Source: a virus (Duplodnaviria; Heunggongvirae; Uroviricota; Caudoviricetes). Taken from it: a stretch of DNA of 43,830 nucleotides. The DNA lies in IMG/VR virus record IMGVR_UViG_2839610755_000005, one strand, 5' to 3'. Below are positions 33,001 to 39,000 of this stretch, piece after piece. Position numbers: made by a program. Position 1 is the first letter of the stretch. The number at the start of each line of letters is the position of its first letter.

Positions 33001-36000
33001 CCAGCCGCTGGCAGAGGATAAAACATTACTGCCATTTTTCAGCGATGAGCGGGTTATTCGTGCAGCAGGTGGTGCAGGTGCACTGTCTGACTGGTTATTA
33101 CGTCACGTGAAATCCTGCCAGTGGCCACACGGCGATTATCATCACAGCGAAACAGTCATTCACCGTTATGGTACCGGCGCGATGGTGTTGTGCTGGCACT
33201 GCGACAACCAGCTGCGCGACCAGACATCAGAATCACTCGATCAACTTGCTCAGCAGAATCTGGTTGCCTGGATGATTGATGTCATCCGTCACGCAATAAG
33301 CGGTACGCAGGAGAGGGAGTTATCGCTGGCCGAATTATCCTGGTAGGCGGCCTGCAATCAGGTGGTGGATGCACTACCTGAGGCAGTAGCGCGTCGTTCG
33401 CTGGGATTACCAGCGGAAAAAATCCGCTCCGTATACCGTGAGAGTGACATCGTACCGGGAGAACAGACAGCCATCAGCATACTGAAGCAGCGCACAAAAA
33501 ATATTGCGCTGCCACTTCACGTCCACCAGCAACAAAATCCACCACAGAAAAAAACGGTTGTCAGTATCGCCGTTGATCCGGAGTCTCCTGAATCGTTCAT
33601 GAAACGACCTAAACGTCGCCGCTGGGTAAATGAGAAATACACACGCTGGGTAAAGACACAGCCGTGTGCGTGTTGTGGTAAGCCAGCCGACGATCCCCAT
33701 CACCTGATTGGTCATGGTCAGGGCGGAATGGGGACAAAATCTCACGATATTTTCACGCTACCGCTGTGTCGGGAGCATCACAACGAGCTTCATGCGGATC
33801 CGCTGGCGTTCGAAGAAAAGCATGGTTCTCAGGTTGATTTAATTTTTCGTTTTCTTGATCACGCCTTTGCAACTGGCGTGCTTGGGTAAAAGAGGTGACT
33901 GATGCTCATAGATTTGGTTTTACCTTACCCGCCGACGGTGAACACTTACTGGCGACGCCGTGGCAGCACATATTTTGTATCAAAAGCCGGGGAGCGTTAT
34001 CGCCGGGCAGTGGCGCTTATTGTTCGCCAGCAGCGACTGAAATTAAGCCTGTCCGGACGGCTGGCAATAAAAATTATTGCAGAGCCACCGGATAAGCGCC
34101 GCCGTGACCTGGACAATATTCTGAAAGCACCGCTGGATGCGCTGACGCACGCGGGGTTGTTAATGGACGATGAGCAGTTTGATGAAATCAATATTGTACG
34201 TGGAAAGCCAGTATCTGGTGGACGTCTGGGGGTGAAGATTTACCCCATAATGCTTGAAGGGCAGGTCAAAAAATGAAACTGGAAGATTTACCGAAATACT
34301 ACTCCCCAAAATCCCCTGGCCTGACCGATGCATCGGCCTCAACGTCAAAAGATGCGCTGAGTATCACTGATGTGATGGCCGCGCAGGGCATGACACAGAA
34401 TCGGGCTGAGATGGGGTTTTCTGCGTTCCTTGGGAAAATGGGCATTAGTATGAATGACAGAGAGCGGGCAACAGAATTGCTGACAGAATATGCACTCAGT
34501 CGGTGTGATCGCGTGGCGGCGTTAAGAAAACTCCCGGCAGAAATAAAACCGGCAGTGATGCGTATTATGGCTTCGTATGCGTTTGAAGATTATGCCCGTA
34601 GCGCGGCGAGCAAAAAACAGTGCCCCTGCTGTCACGGAAAAAAATTTATTGAAAGCGAGGTTTTTACAAACAAGATCCAGTATCCGGATGGTAAGCCGCC
34701 AGTGTGGGCAAAGTGCACAAAAGGCGTGTATCCGTCTTACTGGGAGGAATGGAAAAAAGTCAGGGAGGTGGTAAAAGTTGCCTGTCCGGAGTGTGGCGGA
34801 AAGGGTGAGGTTTCCACCGCCTGTAAGGATTGCCGTGGGCGTGGTGTCGCCATTCATCGTGAAGAGTCGGTAAAACGTGGTATGCCTGTTATCAGAGACT
34901 GCCAGCGTTGTGGTGGTCGTGGCTGTGAAAGACTACCATCAACGGAGGCATTTAATGCCATATGTAATGTAACCGATGCCATATCTCTTGATACATGGAA
35001 AAAAACAGTTAAACGTTTTTACGATACGCTGGTGGTGCAGTTTGATATTGAAGAAGCATGGGCAGAACAACAACTGAAAAAGGTGACCAGATAGCTTTGT
35101 TGATTTTTCCCGAATCTGTGGTAAATTTGCCCTAACGATGGGCGTTTTATGCCTGACGTTAGAAGATTTTTTACACCCCGCCGCCTGGCGGGTTTTTTAT
35201 GACTGAAATCGCGTCAGTACAGTAAACGCGCTGGTGGCGGTGAATACCGGTCTTTCAGCTTGCTGGCTTTTTTGACAAGAGTTATTGGTGTGTCACGTTA
35301 ACCGAAAAAGGGAAAAAGACATGCTGAAACAGCAGGATATGACAGAAACCGCCAGAGCAGTGTTTAATGAATTAAGCGTCACCGAACCGGCGACAGTCGG
35401 GGAGATTGCGCAGAATACTTACCTTTCACGCGAACGCTGCCAGTTAATACTGACCCAGCTTGTTATGGCGGGTCTGGCAGACTATCAGTTCGGTTGTTAC
35501 AGACGCCTTCAGTCCTGAAGGCTTTTTTATTTGTGGTAAATGGGCGGCTGGTGGGTGTTAGGGGCACTCACCAGCCATCTGCTCATGCGTCTGGATCACA
35601 AGCAAACCTCAGGCCCACTGCTTTGCGCAAAAGCAGAATGAGCCTATCAGAGACAGGCTTAATGATCCATGTTTAACACTGTAAAAATATCCAGTTGTGA
35701 GTTGATCAACGCTGACTGCCTGGAATTTATCCGGTCGTTACCCGAAAATTCTGTTGACCTGATAGTCACGGACCCGCCGTACTTTAAAGTGAAGCCTGAG
35801 GGCTGGGATAACCAGTGGAAGGGCGACGATGATTACCTGAAGTGGCTGGACCAGTGTCTGGCGCAGTTCTGGCGGGTGCTGAAACCTGCCGGAAGTCTTT
35901 ACCTGTTCTGTGGCCATCGCCTGGCATCTGACATTGAAATCATGATGCGTGAACGCTTCAGTGTGCTGAACCATATTATCTGGGCGAAGCCGTCCGGACG

Positions 36001-39000
36001 CTGGAACGGGTGCAACAAGGAAAGCCTGAGGGCGTATTTCCCCGCCACAGAGCGCATTCTGTTCGCGGAACATTATCAGGGGCCGTATCGTCCGAAAGAT
36101 GCCGGGTATGAGGCGAAGGGCAGGGCACTGAAACAGCATGTGATGGCTCCGCTGATTTCTTACTTTCGTGATGCGCGTGCTGCCCTGGGGATAACGGCAA
36201 AACAGATAGTGGATGCCACAGGAAAGAAAAACATGGTGTCGCACTGGTTCAGTGCCAGTCAGTGGCAGCTACCGAACGAAAGCGATTATCTGAAATTACA
36301 GGCGCTGTTTGCCCGGGTGGCAGAAGAGAAGCATCAGCGGGGTGAACTGGAGAAGCCCCACCACCAGCTGCTGGAGACGTATACTTCACTGAACCGGCAG
36401 TATGCGGAACTACAGAGTGAATATAAGCATCTGCGGCGGTATTTTGGCGTGACGGCGCAGGTGCCGTACACGGATGTGTGGACGCATAAACCGGTGCAGT
36501 ACTATCCCGGGAAACATCCGTGCGAAAAACCGGCAGAAATGCTGCAGCAGATAATCAGTGCGAGCAGTCGTCCGGGTGACCTGGTTGCAGATTTCTTCAT
36601 GGGGTCGGGTTCGACAGTCAAAGCCGCGATGGCGCTGGGGCGTCGTGCAACTGGCGTTGAGCTGGAGACTGAACGTTTTGAGCAGACGGTCAGGGAAGTA
36701 CAGGATTTAGTCAGTCAGAACGGATGATATTGCAGAATTAACCGGGTATCAGGTACGCCCCGAAAATTTTAAATGTCTCACAATTCAGACGGTTGACAGT
36801 TGTCTGGTTTGCGGGGAGTTTGTTAAAAGAAACTGGCATGGTGAATCCCCCTGAGCGGAGGGGCATATCAGCGCAGGTGTTTCTACTCTATCCTTTCTGT
36901 GCGGGTTCAGGTGCTGATACTGAATTCACCGGGAGGCACCCGGCACCATGCAAGAAAAAGAATGTGCATGCAAACATGCCCCTCTCCGGAGGGGCATTTT
37001 TTTATGGGTAAAAAATGCCCGAATGGGTTCGGGCAATAGCATGAGATACTGATATTGTTGTGTTGTTATCGTGTGGATTTTAACCAGGGTTTATCAGGCT
37101 GCGCAACTGCGTGGCCTTTTTTCATTTCTTGGGCTGTAGTCCCCGTGTGTCATTCAGGCTTCCGGACTACAGCCCACTCCATATCTGATTTAATACACTA
37201 TCCCGGCCGGGAGGAATAATGACATTTAAACATTATGATGTTGTCAGGGCGGCGTCGCCGTCAGACCTTGCGGAAAAGCTGACACACAAACTGAAAGAGG
37301 GCTGGCAGCCGTTTGGTAGTCCGGTGGCCATAACCCCTTATACCCTGATGCAGGCGATTACAGCAGAAGGTGATGTGGTGGTCAGTGGTGCAACTGAGCC
37401 GGATTGGTACTACGTCATCGTACTGGCCGGGCAGTCCAATGCCATGGCTTACGGTGAAGGGCTTCCGCTGCCGGATTCATACGATGCTCCGGATCCGCGC
37501 ATTAAACAGCTGGCGCGCCGCAGTACAGTGACGCCGGGTGGGGCTGCCTGCAGATATAACGATATTATTCCGGCCGACCATTGCCTGCATGATGTGCAGG
37601 ATATGAGTACGCTGAATCATCCGAAGGCAGACCTGAGCAAAGGGCAGTACGGCTGTGTCGGCCAGGGGTTACATATTGCCAAAAAACTGCTCCCGTATAT
37701 CCCGAATAACGCGGGGATCCTGCTGGTACCATGCTGTCGTGGTGGTTCGGCATTCACCCAGGGCGCGGAGGGGACATTCAGTGCGGACACGGGGGCCAGC
37801 CAGGATTCGGCGCGCTGGGGTGTGGGTAAACCGTTATATCAGGACCTGATTGCGCGCACCAAAGCTGCATTACAGAAGAACCCGAAAAATGTGTTGCTGG
37901 CCGTCTGCTGGATGCAGGGTGAGTTTGACATGAGCGCCGCCACCCACGCACAGCAACCTGCGCTGTTTACAGCCATGCTGAAGCAGTTTCGTGCTGACCT
38001 CTCCGTGTTTAACGCGCAGTGCCATGGTGGCAGTGCTGCAGATGTGCCGTGGATTTGTGGTGACACGACGTATTACTGGAAAAATACATACGCTACCCAG
38101 TACGACACCGTGTACGGCGGGTATAAAAACAGGGAGAGTGAGGGCGTTTATTTTGTGCCCTTCATGACAGACGGTAACGGCGTCAATACCGCCACTAACG
38201 CGCCGGCAGAAGATCCGGATATTCCGGCATCAGGATATTACGGTGCGGCATCGAGAACGAATGGAAACCAGGTATCATCAAACCGCCCGACACATTTCAG
38301 TTCATGGGCGCGCAGGAGCATTATTCCGGATCGTCTGGCAACCGCTATTCTGAACGCAGCCGGGCGCACCTCAGCCTTCATCAGTGGTAAGGCACCGGAA
38401 ATCAAACCCTCGCCCGGCGGCAACACGCCATCGGGTCCGTCTGCAGATACGTCCGTTCGCACAATCTCCCTGCTGCCGGCAGCCGGAGAGGCTGCTGCGC
38501 AGGGCTGGAGCATTAAGGATGGCGGAATTCAGTTGTCAGATGGTGTATTTAAGATCACCAGGCAGAGCAATAAAACCTGGTCCCTGACGCATCCGGTGGA
38601 TGACGCAATTACCCTGCTGACACAGGGCGGCAGACTGACCTGTAAGTTCCGCCTGTCAGGCGCACTGACCAACAATCAGTTCGGGCTGGGGATTTATCTG
38701 TATACGGATGCTCCCGTTCCTGATGGTGTGGCGATGACGGGTACCGGTAATCCGTTCCTGATGTCGTACTTCACTCAGACCACTGACGGCAGAGTGAATC
38801 TGATGCATCACAGGAAAGCCGGAAACACGAAGCTGGGGGAGTTCGGCGATTACGGTAACGACTGGCAGACGCTGGAGCTGGTGTTCACCGCCGGCAGTGC
38901 CACGGTTACTCCGAAACTGAATGGAGTGGCTGGCCCGGCATTCCAGGTCATAAAAGACAGTCTGACACTGGGACTGAATGCGCTGACGCTGACGGATGTT

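Follow-up and report, generated by a model that had tools for sequence, protein, structure and literature searches.

The prophage-borne orphan enzymes M.EcoGI and M.EcoGII of Escherichia coli O104:H4 C227-11 are listed as 'nonspecific' in the methylome literature on Shiga toxin-producing E. coli. M.EcoGII, itself prophage-borne, methylates adenine irrespective of the surrounding sequence, is silent in its native host and has deleterious effects when constitutively expressed; a role in anti-restriction hypermethylation has been proposed for it, and the methylase of phage 1720a-02 has been named 'very similar' to it (PMC5778455). A 273-amino-acid (aa) Q protein and 352-aa methylases encoded downstream of Q have already been recorded in Stx2a (Shiga toxin) phages, and nanS-p genes adjoining stx have been described (PMC10462455). 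In strain Sakai, AgvB is encoded on Sp10 and Sp17, with AgvB1 on Sp10, and is a primary transcript with a mapped 5' end that is Hfq-bound in uninduced cells and antagonises, as a sponge, the core small RNA (sRNA) GcvB (PMC4104026). Here we describe a locus that brings these elements together in a Caudoviricetes virus record (IMG/VR IMGVR_UViG_2839610755_000005; 43,830 nucleotides (nt), the whole of which is called the window and supplies the coordinates), in which an M.EcoGII-family methylase gene lies between the gene for the late antiterminator Q and the lysis genes and is preceded by a conserved, structured leader.

In phage lambda, Q loads at a sigma70-dependent pause, for which AACGAT at +1 to +6 is the signal. 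In phage Mu com-mom and in ermC, the ribosome-binding site (RBS) of a toxic or costly modification enzyme is held in an RNA helix, and expression requires that the leader be remodelled by a late or induced event; in Mu, the remodelling is performed by Com, a small zinc-finger protein encoded upstream.

The locus studied here includes a 2.1-kb stretch that was 100% identical to many E. coli O157:H7 chromosomes. The same stretch was found in 3276 of 5426 complete E. coli genomes, frequently in multiple copies, and the block of Q, pR', small ORF and methylase matched 325 phage records, mostly of Stx phages. RefSeq gives the gene order RusA, antitermination protein, hypothetical protein, DNA-methyltransferase, SASA esterase, holin and RrrD lysozyme; from the chromosomal identity and this annotation, we therefore assigned the stretch to the late-gene region of a lambdoid prophage. 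Our best explanation, in which we have good confidence when it is taken as a whole, is that the stretch forms the 'moron' region at the 5' end of a lambdoid prophage late operon in E. coli O157:H7, with an M.EcoGII-type methylase that is kept silent under Q/pR'/tR' control, sRNAs that are independent of Q, and gating by the leader. The features listed in an earlier sequence-only reading of the window were all present when checked by direct reading and by scans, and the locus as listed there is an already published, ordinary part of O157:H7 prophages.

Late promoter, terminators and methylase gene

The + strand gene at 34273-35094 encodes a 273-aa protein that had been proposed to be Q. Its membership in the Q family was borne out by a match to PF03589 (Antiterm) of 167 bits, against a Pfam cut-off of 26.7, and by a phmmer alignment with lambda Q from the Q-loaded complexes in PDB 7ubm (E=1e-39), in which both domains aligned, residues 1-113 and 182-273 corresponding to lambda Q 1-113 and 116-207. 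Relative to lambda Q, the protein carries a 68-aa insert with extra CxxC zinc motifs (residues 114-181, window 34612-34815). The insert holds two additional CxxC pairs, CPCCHGKK and CPECGGKG, and looks like a putative DnaJ-type zinc module, the DnaJ_CXXCXGXG match lying below the Pfam cut-off. The Q protein of a Pantoea prophage displayed the same insert architecture.

After the stop codon of this gene, the promoter-like sequence TTGATT-N16-TAAATT was read as previously noted. We assign it to a putative pR'-type late promoter (35100-35139, +), with the -35 element TTGATT at 35100-35105, a TGn-extended -10 element TAAATT at 35122-35127, a predicted start at about 35134 and the pause element AACGAT at 35134-35139. 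The -10 region GGTAAATTTG, followed by four differing bases and then AACGATGGG, is common to this site and lambda pR' in register. The start would lie at about 35134 because the position of AACGAT was matched to lambda +1 to +6, and by analogy with lambda a sigma70-dependent pause would be expected there. In lambda, the Q-binding element lies in the spacer; the spacer here has an unrelated sequence, in which no Q-binding element was recognisable, and such a spacer would fit a different DNA specificity of this Q.

The strong terminator reported after the promoter was recovered by the terminator scan as an intrinsic terminator at 35177-35198 (+), designated tR', with six G-C pairs and a 4-nt loop in the hairpin (35177-35192) followed by T6; its RNA fold reached -21.9 kcal/mol (z = -2.45), and a pR' transcript stopped there would be about 65 nt long. 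A second intrinsic terminator at 35505-35528 (+; scan hairpin 35505-35522; -11.1 kcal/mol, z = -2.2) overlaps the stop codon of a small open reading frame (ORF) and lies directly 5' of the leader, and a hairpin with a T-rich tract was found at this position in nearly all related loci. Between 33800 and 39800, 17 terminator-like sites were observed compared with 5.5 +/- 2.4 in shuffles, approximately a threefold excess. A weak terminator at 35128-35144 was rejected because its 5' arm lies upstream of the start at 35134 and hence outside the RNA. With Q homology, a promoter that has a pause element and a terminator before the late genes, a predicted lambda-type Q/pR'/tR' module is present.

The orphan DPPY methyltransferase was confirmed at 35669-36727 (+). 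Its 352-aa product is a beta-class N6-adenine DNA methyltransferase of the M.EcoGII family: PF01555 (151 bits) covers residues 29-340, with DPPY at 35-38 and FMGSGS at 310-315, and the order of an N-terminal DPPY, a central recognition domain and a C-terminal FxGxG is that of the beta class, to which the nearest solved relatives also belong. The protein was identical to M.EcoGII at 327 of 349 positions (94%), over the full length and including the recognition domain. Phage 1720a-02, the second-best phage match to the window, shares 98.2% nt identity over that region. Judged by its sequence, the window enzyme is almost certainly a non-specific N6-methyladenine (m6A) methylase without a specific target site. 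The question for which a REBASE and methylome comparison had been suggested, that of its target, is thus largely answered; given the 94% identity to an enzyme that methylates adenine in any context (PMC5778455), a target-site search would most probably find none.

No nuclease adjoins the methylase in the ORFs, Pfam matches or RefSeq annotation, the neighbours being the 65-aa ORF, sRNA genes and the esterase gene, and the enzyme is in this respect the orphan that it was taken to be. The DUF968 protein, which has a weak HNHc_6 match, was rejected as an adjacent nuclease: its gene, a standard lambdoid gene situated upstream of rusA, is here a pseudogene. This YdfU-like gene (32840-33889) is split into two ORFs and is annotated by RefSeq as a pseudogene with an internal stop, which suggests a decaying prophage copy.

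Upstream of the methylase, the ORF at 35321-35518 (+) encodes a 65-aa protein annotated as 'TrmB family'. The sequence-only reading called it a small winged-helix ORF; the ORF is there, and its winged-helix character is hinted at by Pfam matches to TrmB and DprA_WH below the cut-off and by an AlphaFold model (topology H-b-H-H-b-b; predicted local distance difference test score, pLDDT, 66) whose top Foldseek matches were all winged-helix proteins, none of them significant. An attempt to assign a function through the fold search was therefore dropped, as it returned a generic winged-helix resemblance only. The protein has 340 homologues of 80-98% identity in Escherichia, Shigella, Salmonella, Klebsiella, Citrobacter, Buttiauxella and Pantoea, and the small ORF and the methylase also lie between Q and holin in Klebsiella, Salmonella and Pantoea prophages, in which the Q families differ (PF06323, PF06530/DUF1133 and PF03589). 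Of 43 species-level loci, about 30 have the ORF in front of the methylase; the ORF is therefore a common accessory of the methylase cassette, though not an obligatory one. A conserved non-coding block 5' of the small ORF (35240-35320), CTTGCTG...CAAGAGTTAT..GT.TGTCA, was common to E. coli, Klebsiella, Salmonella and Pantoea, with differing sequence further upstream, and may be a promoter or operator of the cassette.

Small RNA genes and the stx junction

Downstream of the methylase lie two sRNA genes that the sequence-only reading missed. An STnc100-family sRNA (36807-37007, +; Rfam RF02076), the PasD/EcOnc27-type partner of a convergent pair, matched model positions 1-206 with 150 bits against a gathering score of 47 and ends in a terminator at 36976-37003. 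STnc100 has been related to PasD sRNAs and linked to the esterase gene (preprint 10.64898/2026.05.13.724894). The anti-GcvB sRNA AgvB (37010-37071, -; Rfam RF02702; 96.5 bits against a gathering score of 56) was identical to the consensus at 62 of 62 positions, including the 5' CACAACA motif complementary to GcvB R1 (CGAUAACAACACAACAAU...), and has its own terminator at 37035-37016. Its promoter is predicted to consist of TTGCGC (37106-37101), an 18-nt spacer and TAAAAT (37082-37077).

On the + strand, the terminator scan reported hairpins at 36976-36997 and 37096-37117. The latter belongs to a conserved terminator-like hairpin with T6 (37096-37123; -14.9 kcal/mol, z = -3.17), which overlaps the -35 element of the putative AgvB promoter and whose CTGCGCAACTGCGCGGCC-T5 is conserved in Stx1 and Stx2 phages. 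The two additional terminators described earlier for this interval are thus present at 36976 and 37096 but are not free-standing, the first being that of STnc100 and the second a hairpin in the AgvB promoter region. The proposal that all cargo depends on Q read-through did not hold, as AgvB, encoded on the opposite strand, starts from a site of its own and is bound by Hfq in cells that have not been induced (PMC4104026). A GcvB covariance-model match at 36970-37123 (+), with 26.8 bits and below gathering, was rejected as a gcvB gene, since the complement of the AgvB seed mimics GcvB R1 and a terminator lies nearby. Opposite AgvB, the + strand sequence is UUGUUGUGUUGUU, which resembles the GcvB R1 seed, with a terminator after it; because of this resemblance, a Q-dependent late transcript would carry a GcvB-like stretch complementary to AgvB.

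ARAGORN found no tRNA genes in the window, ruling out tRNA remnants in the stx slot, and no stx ORFs were found in 35095-37218; the window is therefore not that of a Stx-converting phage. The Stx2a phage Stx2_EH1910 carries, in this order, the same 273-aa Q, small ORF, methylase, three tRNA genes, stx2A, stx2B, STnc100, an iraM-like gene, nanS-p and holin, and phage 1720a-02 has the same small ORF and methylase, followed by tRNAs and stx2A, behind a different Q. When both flanks were aligned with Stx2_EH1910, the insertion point of the tRNA-stx segment fell at about 36738-36742, just past the methylase stop and before STnc100, within a junction for tRNA and stx2AB (36738-36773) that is empty here. 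In H-19B, VT2phi_272, VT1-Sakai and TL-2011a, the block immediately 3' of stx comprises STnc100 (+), an AsxR/AgvB-type RNA (-), the + strand hairpin, the inverted repeat described below and the start of nanS-p, and STnc100 occupied the same position 3' of stx in five loci (L004-L008). Because the tRNA-stx insertion lies after the methylase stop in the relatives, the methylase cassette, as compared at the sequence level, is a frequent upstream neighbour of stx and not a substitute for it, and the prophage is a stx-less form of the same architecture.

The leader of the methylase gene

The leader (35540-35668, +) comprises approximately 130 nt between the small ORF and the methylase AUG; it is unannotated and was missed by the sequence-only reading. 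In an alignment of E. coli, Klebsiella, Salmonella and Pantoea, it was better conserved than the surrounding coding DNA, with invariant runs of up to 21 nt and 1-nt indels between genera. Over 780 sequence pairs, its mean pairwise identity was 0.86, compared with 0.54 at third positions across the initial 110 codons of the methylase gene (first positions, 0.83; second positions, 0.91). With one genome scanned per species, the leader was present in 41 of 45 methylase loci, and it is conserved over about 40 Enterobacterales species (window 35540-35668; also L009 5209-5341, L012, L014, L017-L056 and L061-L109); a 20-nt leader pattern matched more than 120 contigs in the viral collection. A DPPY ORF lay within 400 nt downstream in 151 of the 156 leader instances. 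Methylases at or below about 70% identity lacked the leader (L049, L057 and L058), as did that of L039 at 75%, and in about a quarter of loci the leader was retained without the winged-helix ORF.

A known RNA family was rejected, since apart from the sRNAs no Rfam 15 match was obtained at E<=1 in 34900-39800, and the leader sequence was not found printed in the literature searched. The leader is apparently undescribed and possibly a new RNA element, the sole possibly new item of the locus. It was also rejected as protein-coding: the 1-nt indels between genera break every frame, and a mini-ORF at its start, MGGWWVL, varies in length and shows W-to-R changes and early stops.

RNAalifold returned a + strand fold, here called fold 1, in which helix P1 (UGGGC:GCCCA, 35541-35545 / 35613-35617) closes the P2 hairpin (35546-35557 / 35565-35576) and P3 (35580-35587 / 35597-35604), with the P4 hairpin (35618-35624 / 35630-35636) 3' of P1. 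On a neutral MAFFT alignment, 89% of cells were paired compared with 28-42% when the pairing was slid, with nine two-sided pairs; on the covariance model, with 65 distinct sequences, the corresponding values were 90.7% and 27-41%, with 11 two-sided pairs. In both cases, 0 of 500 shuffles reached the observed value. One P3 pair occurred as CG 30 times, AU 21, UA 8 and UG 5, and P1, P2 and P4 showed single compensatory events. In Mixta (L024), a G-to-A change in UGGGC was accompanied by C-to-U in GCCCA; in L044, a U-A pair of P3 was replaced by C-G; and in Serratia, P2 was shortened yet paired and the P4 hairpin was a different one. G-U pairs were frequent in the leader folds, indicating that the structure is on the + strand.

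The minimum free energy structures of the E. coli, Klebsiella and Serratia leaders (z = -4.5, -3.5 and -2.2) shared another arrangement, fold 2, that is exclusive of fold 1. In all three, AUGGGC pairs with GCUCAU (window 35540-35545 : 35581-35586), GG(A/U)CAcAAGC pairs with GCUUanUGAUC(C/U) directly before the AUG, and GGCCCA pairs with UGAGCC; in the window, the second of these pairings joins GGAUCA (35593-35598) to UGAUCC (35663-35668), where the RBS lies, and AAGC (35600-35603) to GCUU (35657-35660). Fold 2 was 93.3% pairable, and 91.8% on the neutral alignment. UGAUC, which is complementary to GAUCA near the 3' end of 16S rRNA, is the only candidate for the RBS of the methylase, and an atypical one. 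In silico, fold 1 is tentatively supported by covariation and fold 2 by thermodynamics and conserved complementarity, giving two mutually exclusive predicted folds of which one occludes the RBS; near-invariance is expected if each segment must pair with two partners.

It is plausible, although speculative, that the leader holds the methylase RBS closed by default and opens on a late-phase event. We tentatively propose, as a possibility that falls short of being probable, that the leader represents an undescribed class of cis-acting RNA switch for M.EcoGII-family methylases in Enterobacterales lambdoid prophages, in which UGAUC is hidden by default, a three-helix fold frees it, and a late-phase factor, possibly the 65-aa winged-helix protein acting in a Com/mom-like manner, remodels the leader. 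Together with the two terminators, such a switch would explain both the silence of the methylase in the lysogen and a timely hypermethylation of progeny.

Two other pairings were discarded. A long-range GCUCAU:AUGAGC pairing within the leader was dropped for P3 and P1', which fit the variants L044 and L032 better, and a minus-strand terminator-like hairpin at 35659-35641 was rejected because its pairing is not kept in Klebsiella, Salmonella and Pantoea. In L044 (2850-3009; Enterobacteriaceae bacterium G50), the methylase start region is replaced, the anti-RBS segment GGUCAC has become AACUCAC and P3 is strengthened by two compensatory C-G pairs; this leader could be a natural 'locked' version.

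Read as DNA, the leader could be a promoter or operator at which the winged-helix protein controls methylase transcription, like the C-proteins of restriction-modification genes. The presence of the winged-helix ORF directly upstream in about 30 of 43 species loci, palindromes such as GCTTTAGCGCTAAAGC, a TGn-extended -10-like motif (TGTGAAAAT / TGGTAAAT) at the 5' edge and invariant blocks of about 20 nt, typical of protein-binding sites, would all suit this role. However, we consider it unlikely, as many of its pairs are G-U, which on the complementary strand would become A-C mismatches and have no meaning in double-stranded DNA, P1 encloses P2 and P3 in a nested arrangement, one pair cycles through CG, AU, UA and UG, and the leader is kept in the quarter or so of loci where no winged-helix ORF accompanies it. 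Distinctly unlikely, in our view, is that the leader works through translation of the mini-ORF AUG GGC GGC UGG UGG GUG UUx (MGGWWVL...), as in ermC or trp attenuation, with ribosomes melting the first hairpin and opening the RBS. Its AUG is found at the leader start in 63 of 65 distinct copies (the remaining pair being truncated at the contig 5' end), the 7-residue MGGWWVL is the commonest product (24 copies), and the geometry of the folds implies that a ribosome there would free GCUCAU for P3, which excludes the RBS-hiding helix. Nevertheless, no Shine-Dalgarno sequence lies in front of the AUG, which is itself paired in both folds, the peptide ranges from 3 to >45 residues with tryptophan replacements and premature ends, and all third codon positions are invariant, so that the constraint is on the RNA and not on the peptide. 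We judge it very unlikely that the leader is an independent small RNA, or a processing or stability element, without a role in methylase translation. Although the prophage region is rich in Hfq-binding sRNAs (PMC4104026) and the terminator preceding the leader would permit release by processing, the leader has no terminator of its own and is continuous into the methylase AUG, the methylase follows in 151 of 156 copies, the conserved 3' end contains the RBS, and the rows of Table S2 that were examined list no Hfq peak at this Sp10 position (PMC4104026).

At the level of the whole locus, the sequence-only reading held that the slot between Q and the lysis genes contains a sequence-specific orphan methylase and terminators in place of stx, all expressed by Q read-through only. 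Its Q, pR', tR' and orphan methylase are real, and the slot lacks stx and tRNA genes as stated. The methylase, however, does not replace stx, since the same cassette lies upstream of the tRNAs and stx2AB in Stx phages; moreover, the extra terminators are accounted for by STnc100 and the promoter region of AgvB, AgvB itself has its own start site on the other strand (PMC4104026), and the enzyme is 94% identical to one without sequence specificity. We therefore give this account of the slot very little credence.

Expression scheme, neighbouring features and known systems

The preferred explanation, a Q-controlled methylase with a gating leader, would operate as follows. In the lysogen, pR' would fire constitutively, by analogy with lambda, polymerase would stop at tR' after about 65 nt, and any read-through would meet the terminator at 35505; because pR' transcripts would stop at these two sites, the toxic methylase would remain silent. 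Its position behind two terminators fits the predicted Q-dependent late expression. Upon induction, Q would, as its homology suggests, load on polymerase paused at AACGAT and make it terminator-resistant, and a single transcript would cover the small ORF and the methylase, pass the sRNA terminators, and continue over nanS-p and beyond the terminator at 39436 to reach the holin and lysis genes. The late methylase could then hypermethylate replicating phage DNA before packaging, providing broad anti-restriction. The convergent, Hfq-binding sRNAs STnc100 (+) and AgvB (-) would be made from their own promoters in the lysogen, independently of Q, and AgvB would sponge GcvB. In the leader, the default pairing of GG(A/U)CAcAAGC with GCUUanUGAUC would hide the RBS and the P1-P2-P3 fold would free it, the candidate triggers being the winged-helix protein, a ribosome on the poorly conserved mini-ORF or another factor.

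Several points weigh against this scheme. The pR' element agrees with the consensus at 8 of 12 positions and was missed by the promoter scan, and its credibility stems from homology with lambda pR', not from a consensus score. The helices specific to fold 2, which hide the RBS, are nearly invariant: they vary by wobble on one side only, and clear two-sided covariation is absent from the neutral alignment. The leader sequences are closely related, so that the shuffle controls overstate significance. The methylase differs from M.EcoGII at 22 positions, of which about 6 fall within the predicted recognition domain (residues 160-237), counted against a reference taken from a machine-converted PDF of the PMC11551740 supplement, so that some may be artefacts, and we infer its non-specificity from the 94% identity. 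The inverted repeat at 37130-37176 is unexplained by the model, and the mechanism as it would apply to the window strain draws on sequence, homology and the literature.

This inverted repeat (+) lies in the 5' untranslated region of nanS-p. It is perfect, as had been noted, with arms of 13 bp (37130-37142 / 37164-37176), not 12 bp, around a 21-nt loop. Its fold reached z = -3.05, no U-tract follows it, and invariance in relatives is confined to the outer GGGCTG/CAGCCC. The repeat was rejected as a conserved structure of RNA or DNA, since inner arm changes are uncompensated in VT2phi_272, VT1-Sakai and TL-2011a and the loop length differs. The adjoining esterase gene was confirmed at 37219-39069 (+) as a SASA gene; its 616-aa product (Pfam DUF1737, SASA and DUF6645; RefSeq 'SASA family carbohydrate esterase') is, by its predicted domain architecture and its location upstream of the lysis genes, a NanS-p-type prophage sialate O-acetylesterase.

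Between nanS-p and the holin gene, 39070-39447 consists of two tandem related units of about 135-150 nt, each beginning with A7 and an AGCCAGC...GCTGGCT hairpin that reads as a minus-strand terminator; a minus-strand promoter-like site lies at 39200-39171. These units had no Rfam match at E<=1 and are probably PasA/PasC-type sRNA genes, which have been placed between esterase and holin (2026 preprint 10.64898/2026.05.13.724894). The last terminator before the lysis cassette, found by the terminator scan, is at 39436-39462 with a T-run (+), and is followed by an S21-type holin gene (39517-39723, +; RefSeq coding sequence (CDS); Pfam Phage_holin_2_1). Elsewhere in the window, Rfam matched the ALIL frameshift pseudoknot of an IS3-family element (2202-2318, -), DicF (25224-25275, -) and the sok antitoxin RNA adjoining hokD (31706-31880, +), all of which are usual for O157 lambdoid prophages.

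The placement of the methylase offers a testable answer to a question that the M.EcoGII paper did not settle, that of how the lysogen keeps the enzyme silent: silencing would come from pR', two terminators and Q. If the leader is a true switch, it would add a new RNA regulator that acts on a toxic DNA-modifying enzyme, and would provide a handle for controlling the expression of M.EcoGII, which is widely used in chromatin and RNA mapping. The corrections made here are also of use, in that there is almost certainly no 'target site' to seek, the extra terminators are those of the virulence-relevant AgvB and STnc100 genes, and the methylase is a neighbour of stx.

Compared with the late switch of lambda, in which the terminated RNA is 6S RNA, the locus has a homologous Q, the same -10 element TAAATT, the same AACGAT at the same distance and an intrinsic terminator downstream, but differs in the 68-aa zinc-motif insert of Q, an unrelated spacer, a predicted terminated RNA of about 65 nt instead of 194 nt and approximately 4.3 kb of cargo between pR' and holin. 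The likeness of the leader to Mu com-mom and ermC is one of analogy only, with no relationship in sequence or fold: Com is a zinc-finger protein whereas the small protein here is winged-helix-like, the small ORF is absent from about a quarter of loci, and no inducer or stalling peptide is evident. Stx2_EH1910 and 1720a-02, as well as phiP27, share tR', the small ORF, the leader and the methylase at 86-98% nt identity, with STnc100 and nanS-p downstream and the 273-aa Q in Stx2_EH1910 only; Stx2_EH1910 and 1720a-02 differ in having three tRNA genes and stx2AB between methylase and STnc100, and in Stx2_EH1910 the place of AgvB and the inverted repeat is taken by an iraM-like gene. The pR' 'moron' site of AgvB1 on Sakai Sp10 is in effect the same locus, with Q, pR', a moron CDS, a convergent pair of sRNAs (STnc100/EcOnc27-type and AgvB) and a conserved ORF now known as nanS-p; there are no structural differences, and the description of that site names no M.EcoGII-type moron CDS and describes no leader (PMC4104026). 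Finally, the methylase shares with M.EcoGII the beta-class order, 94% full-length identity, a prophage location and orphan status, and differs in length (352 versus 349 aa) and by about 22 substitutions, the activity of the window allele being predicted; whereas the account of M.EcoGII gives no silencing mechanism (PMC5778455), the gene in the window sits behind pR', two terminators and a structured leader.

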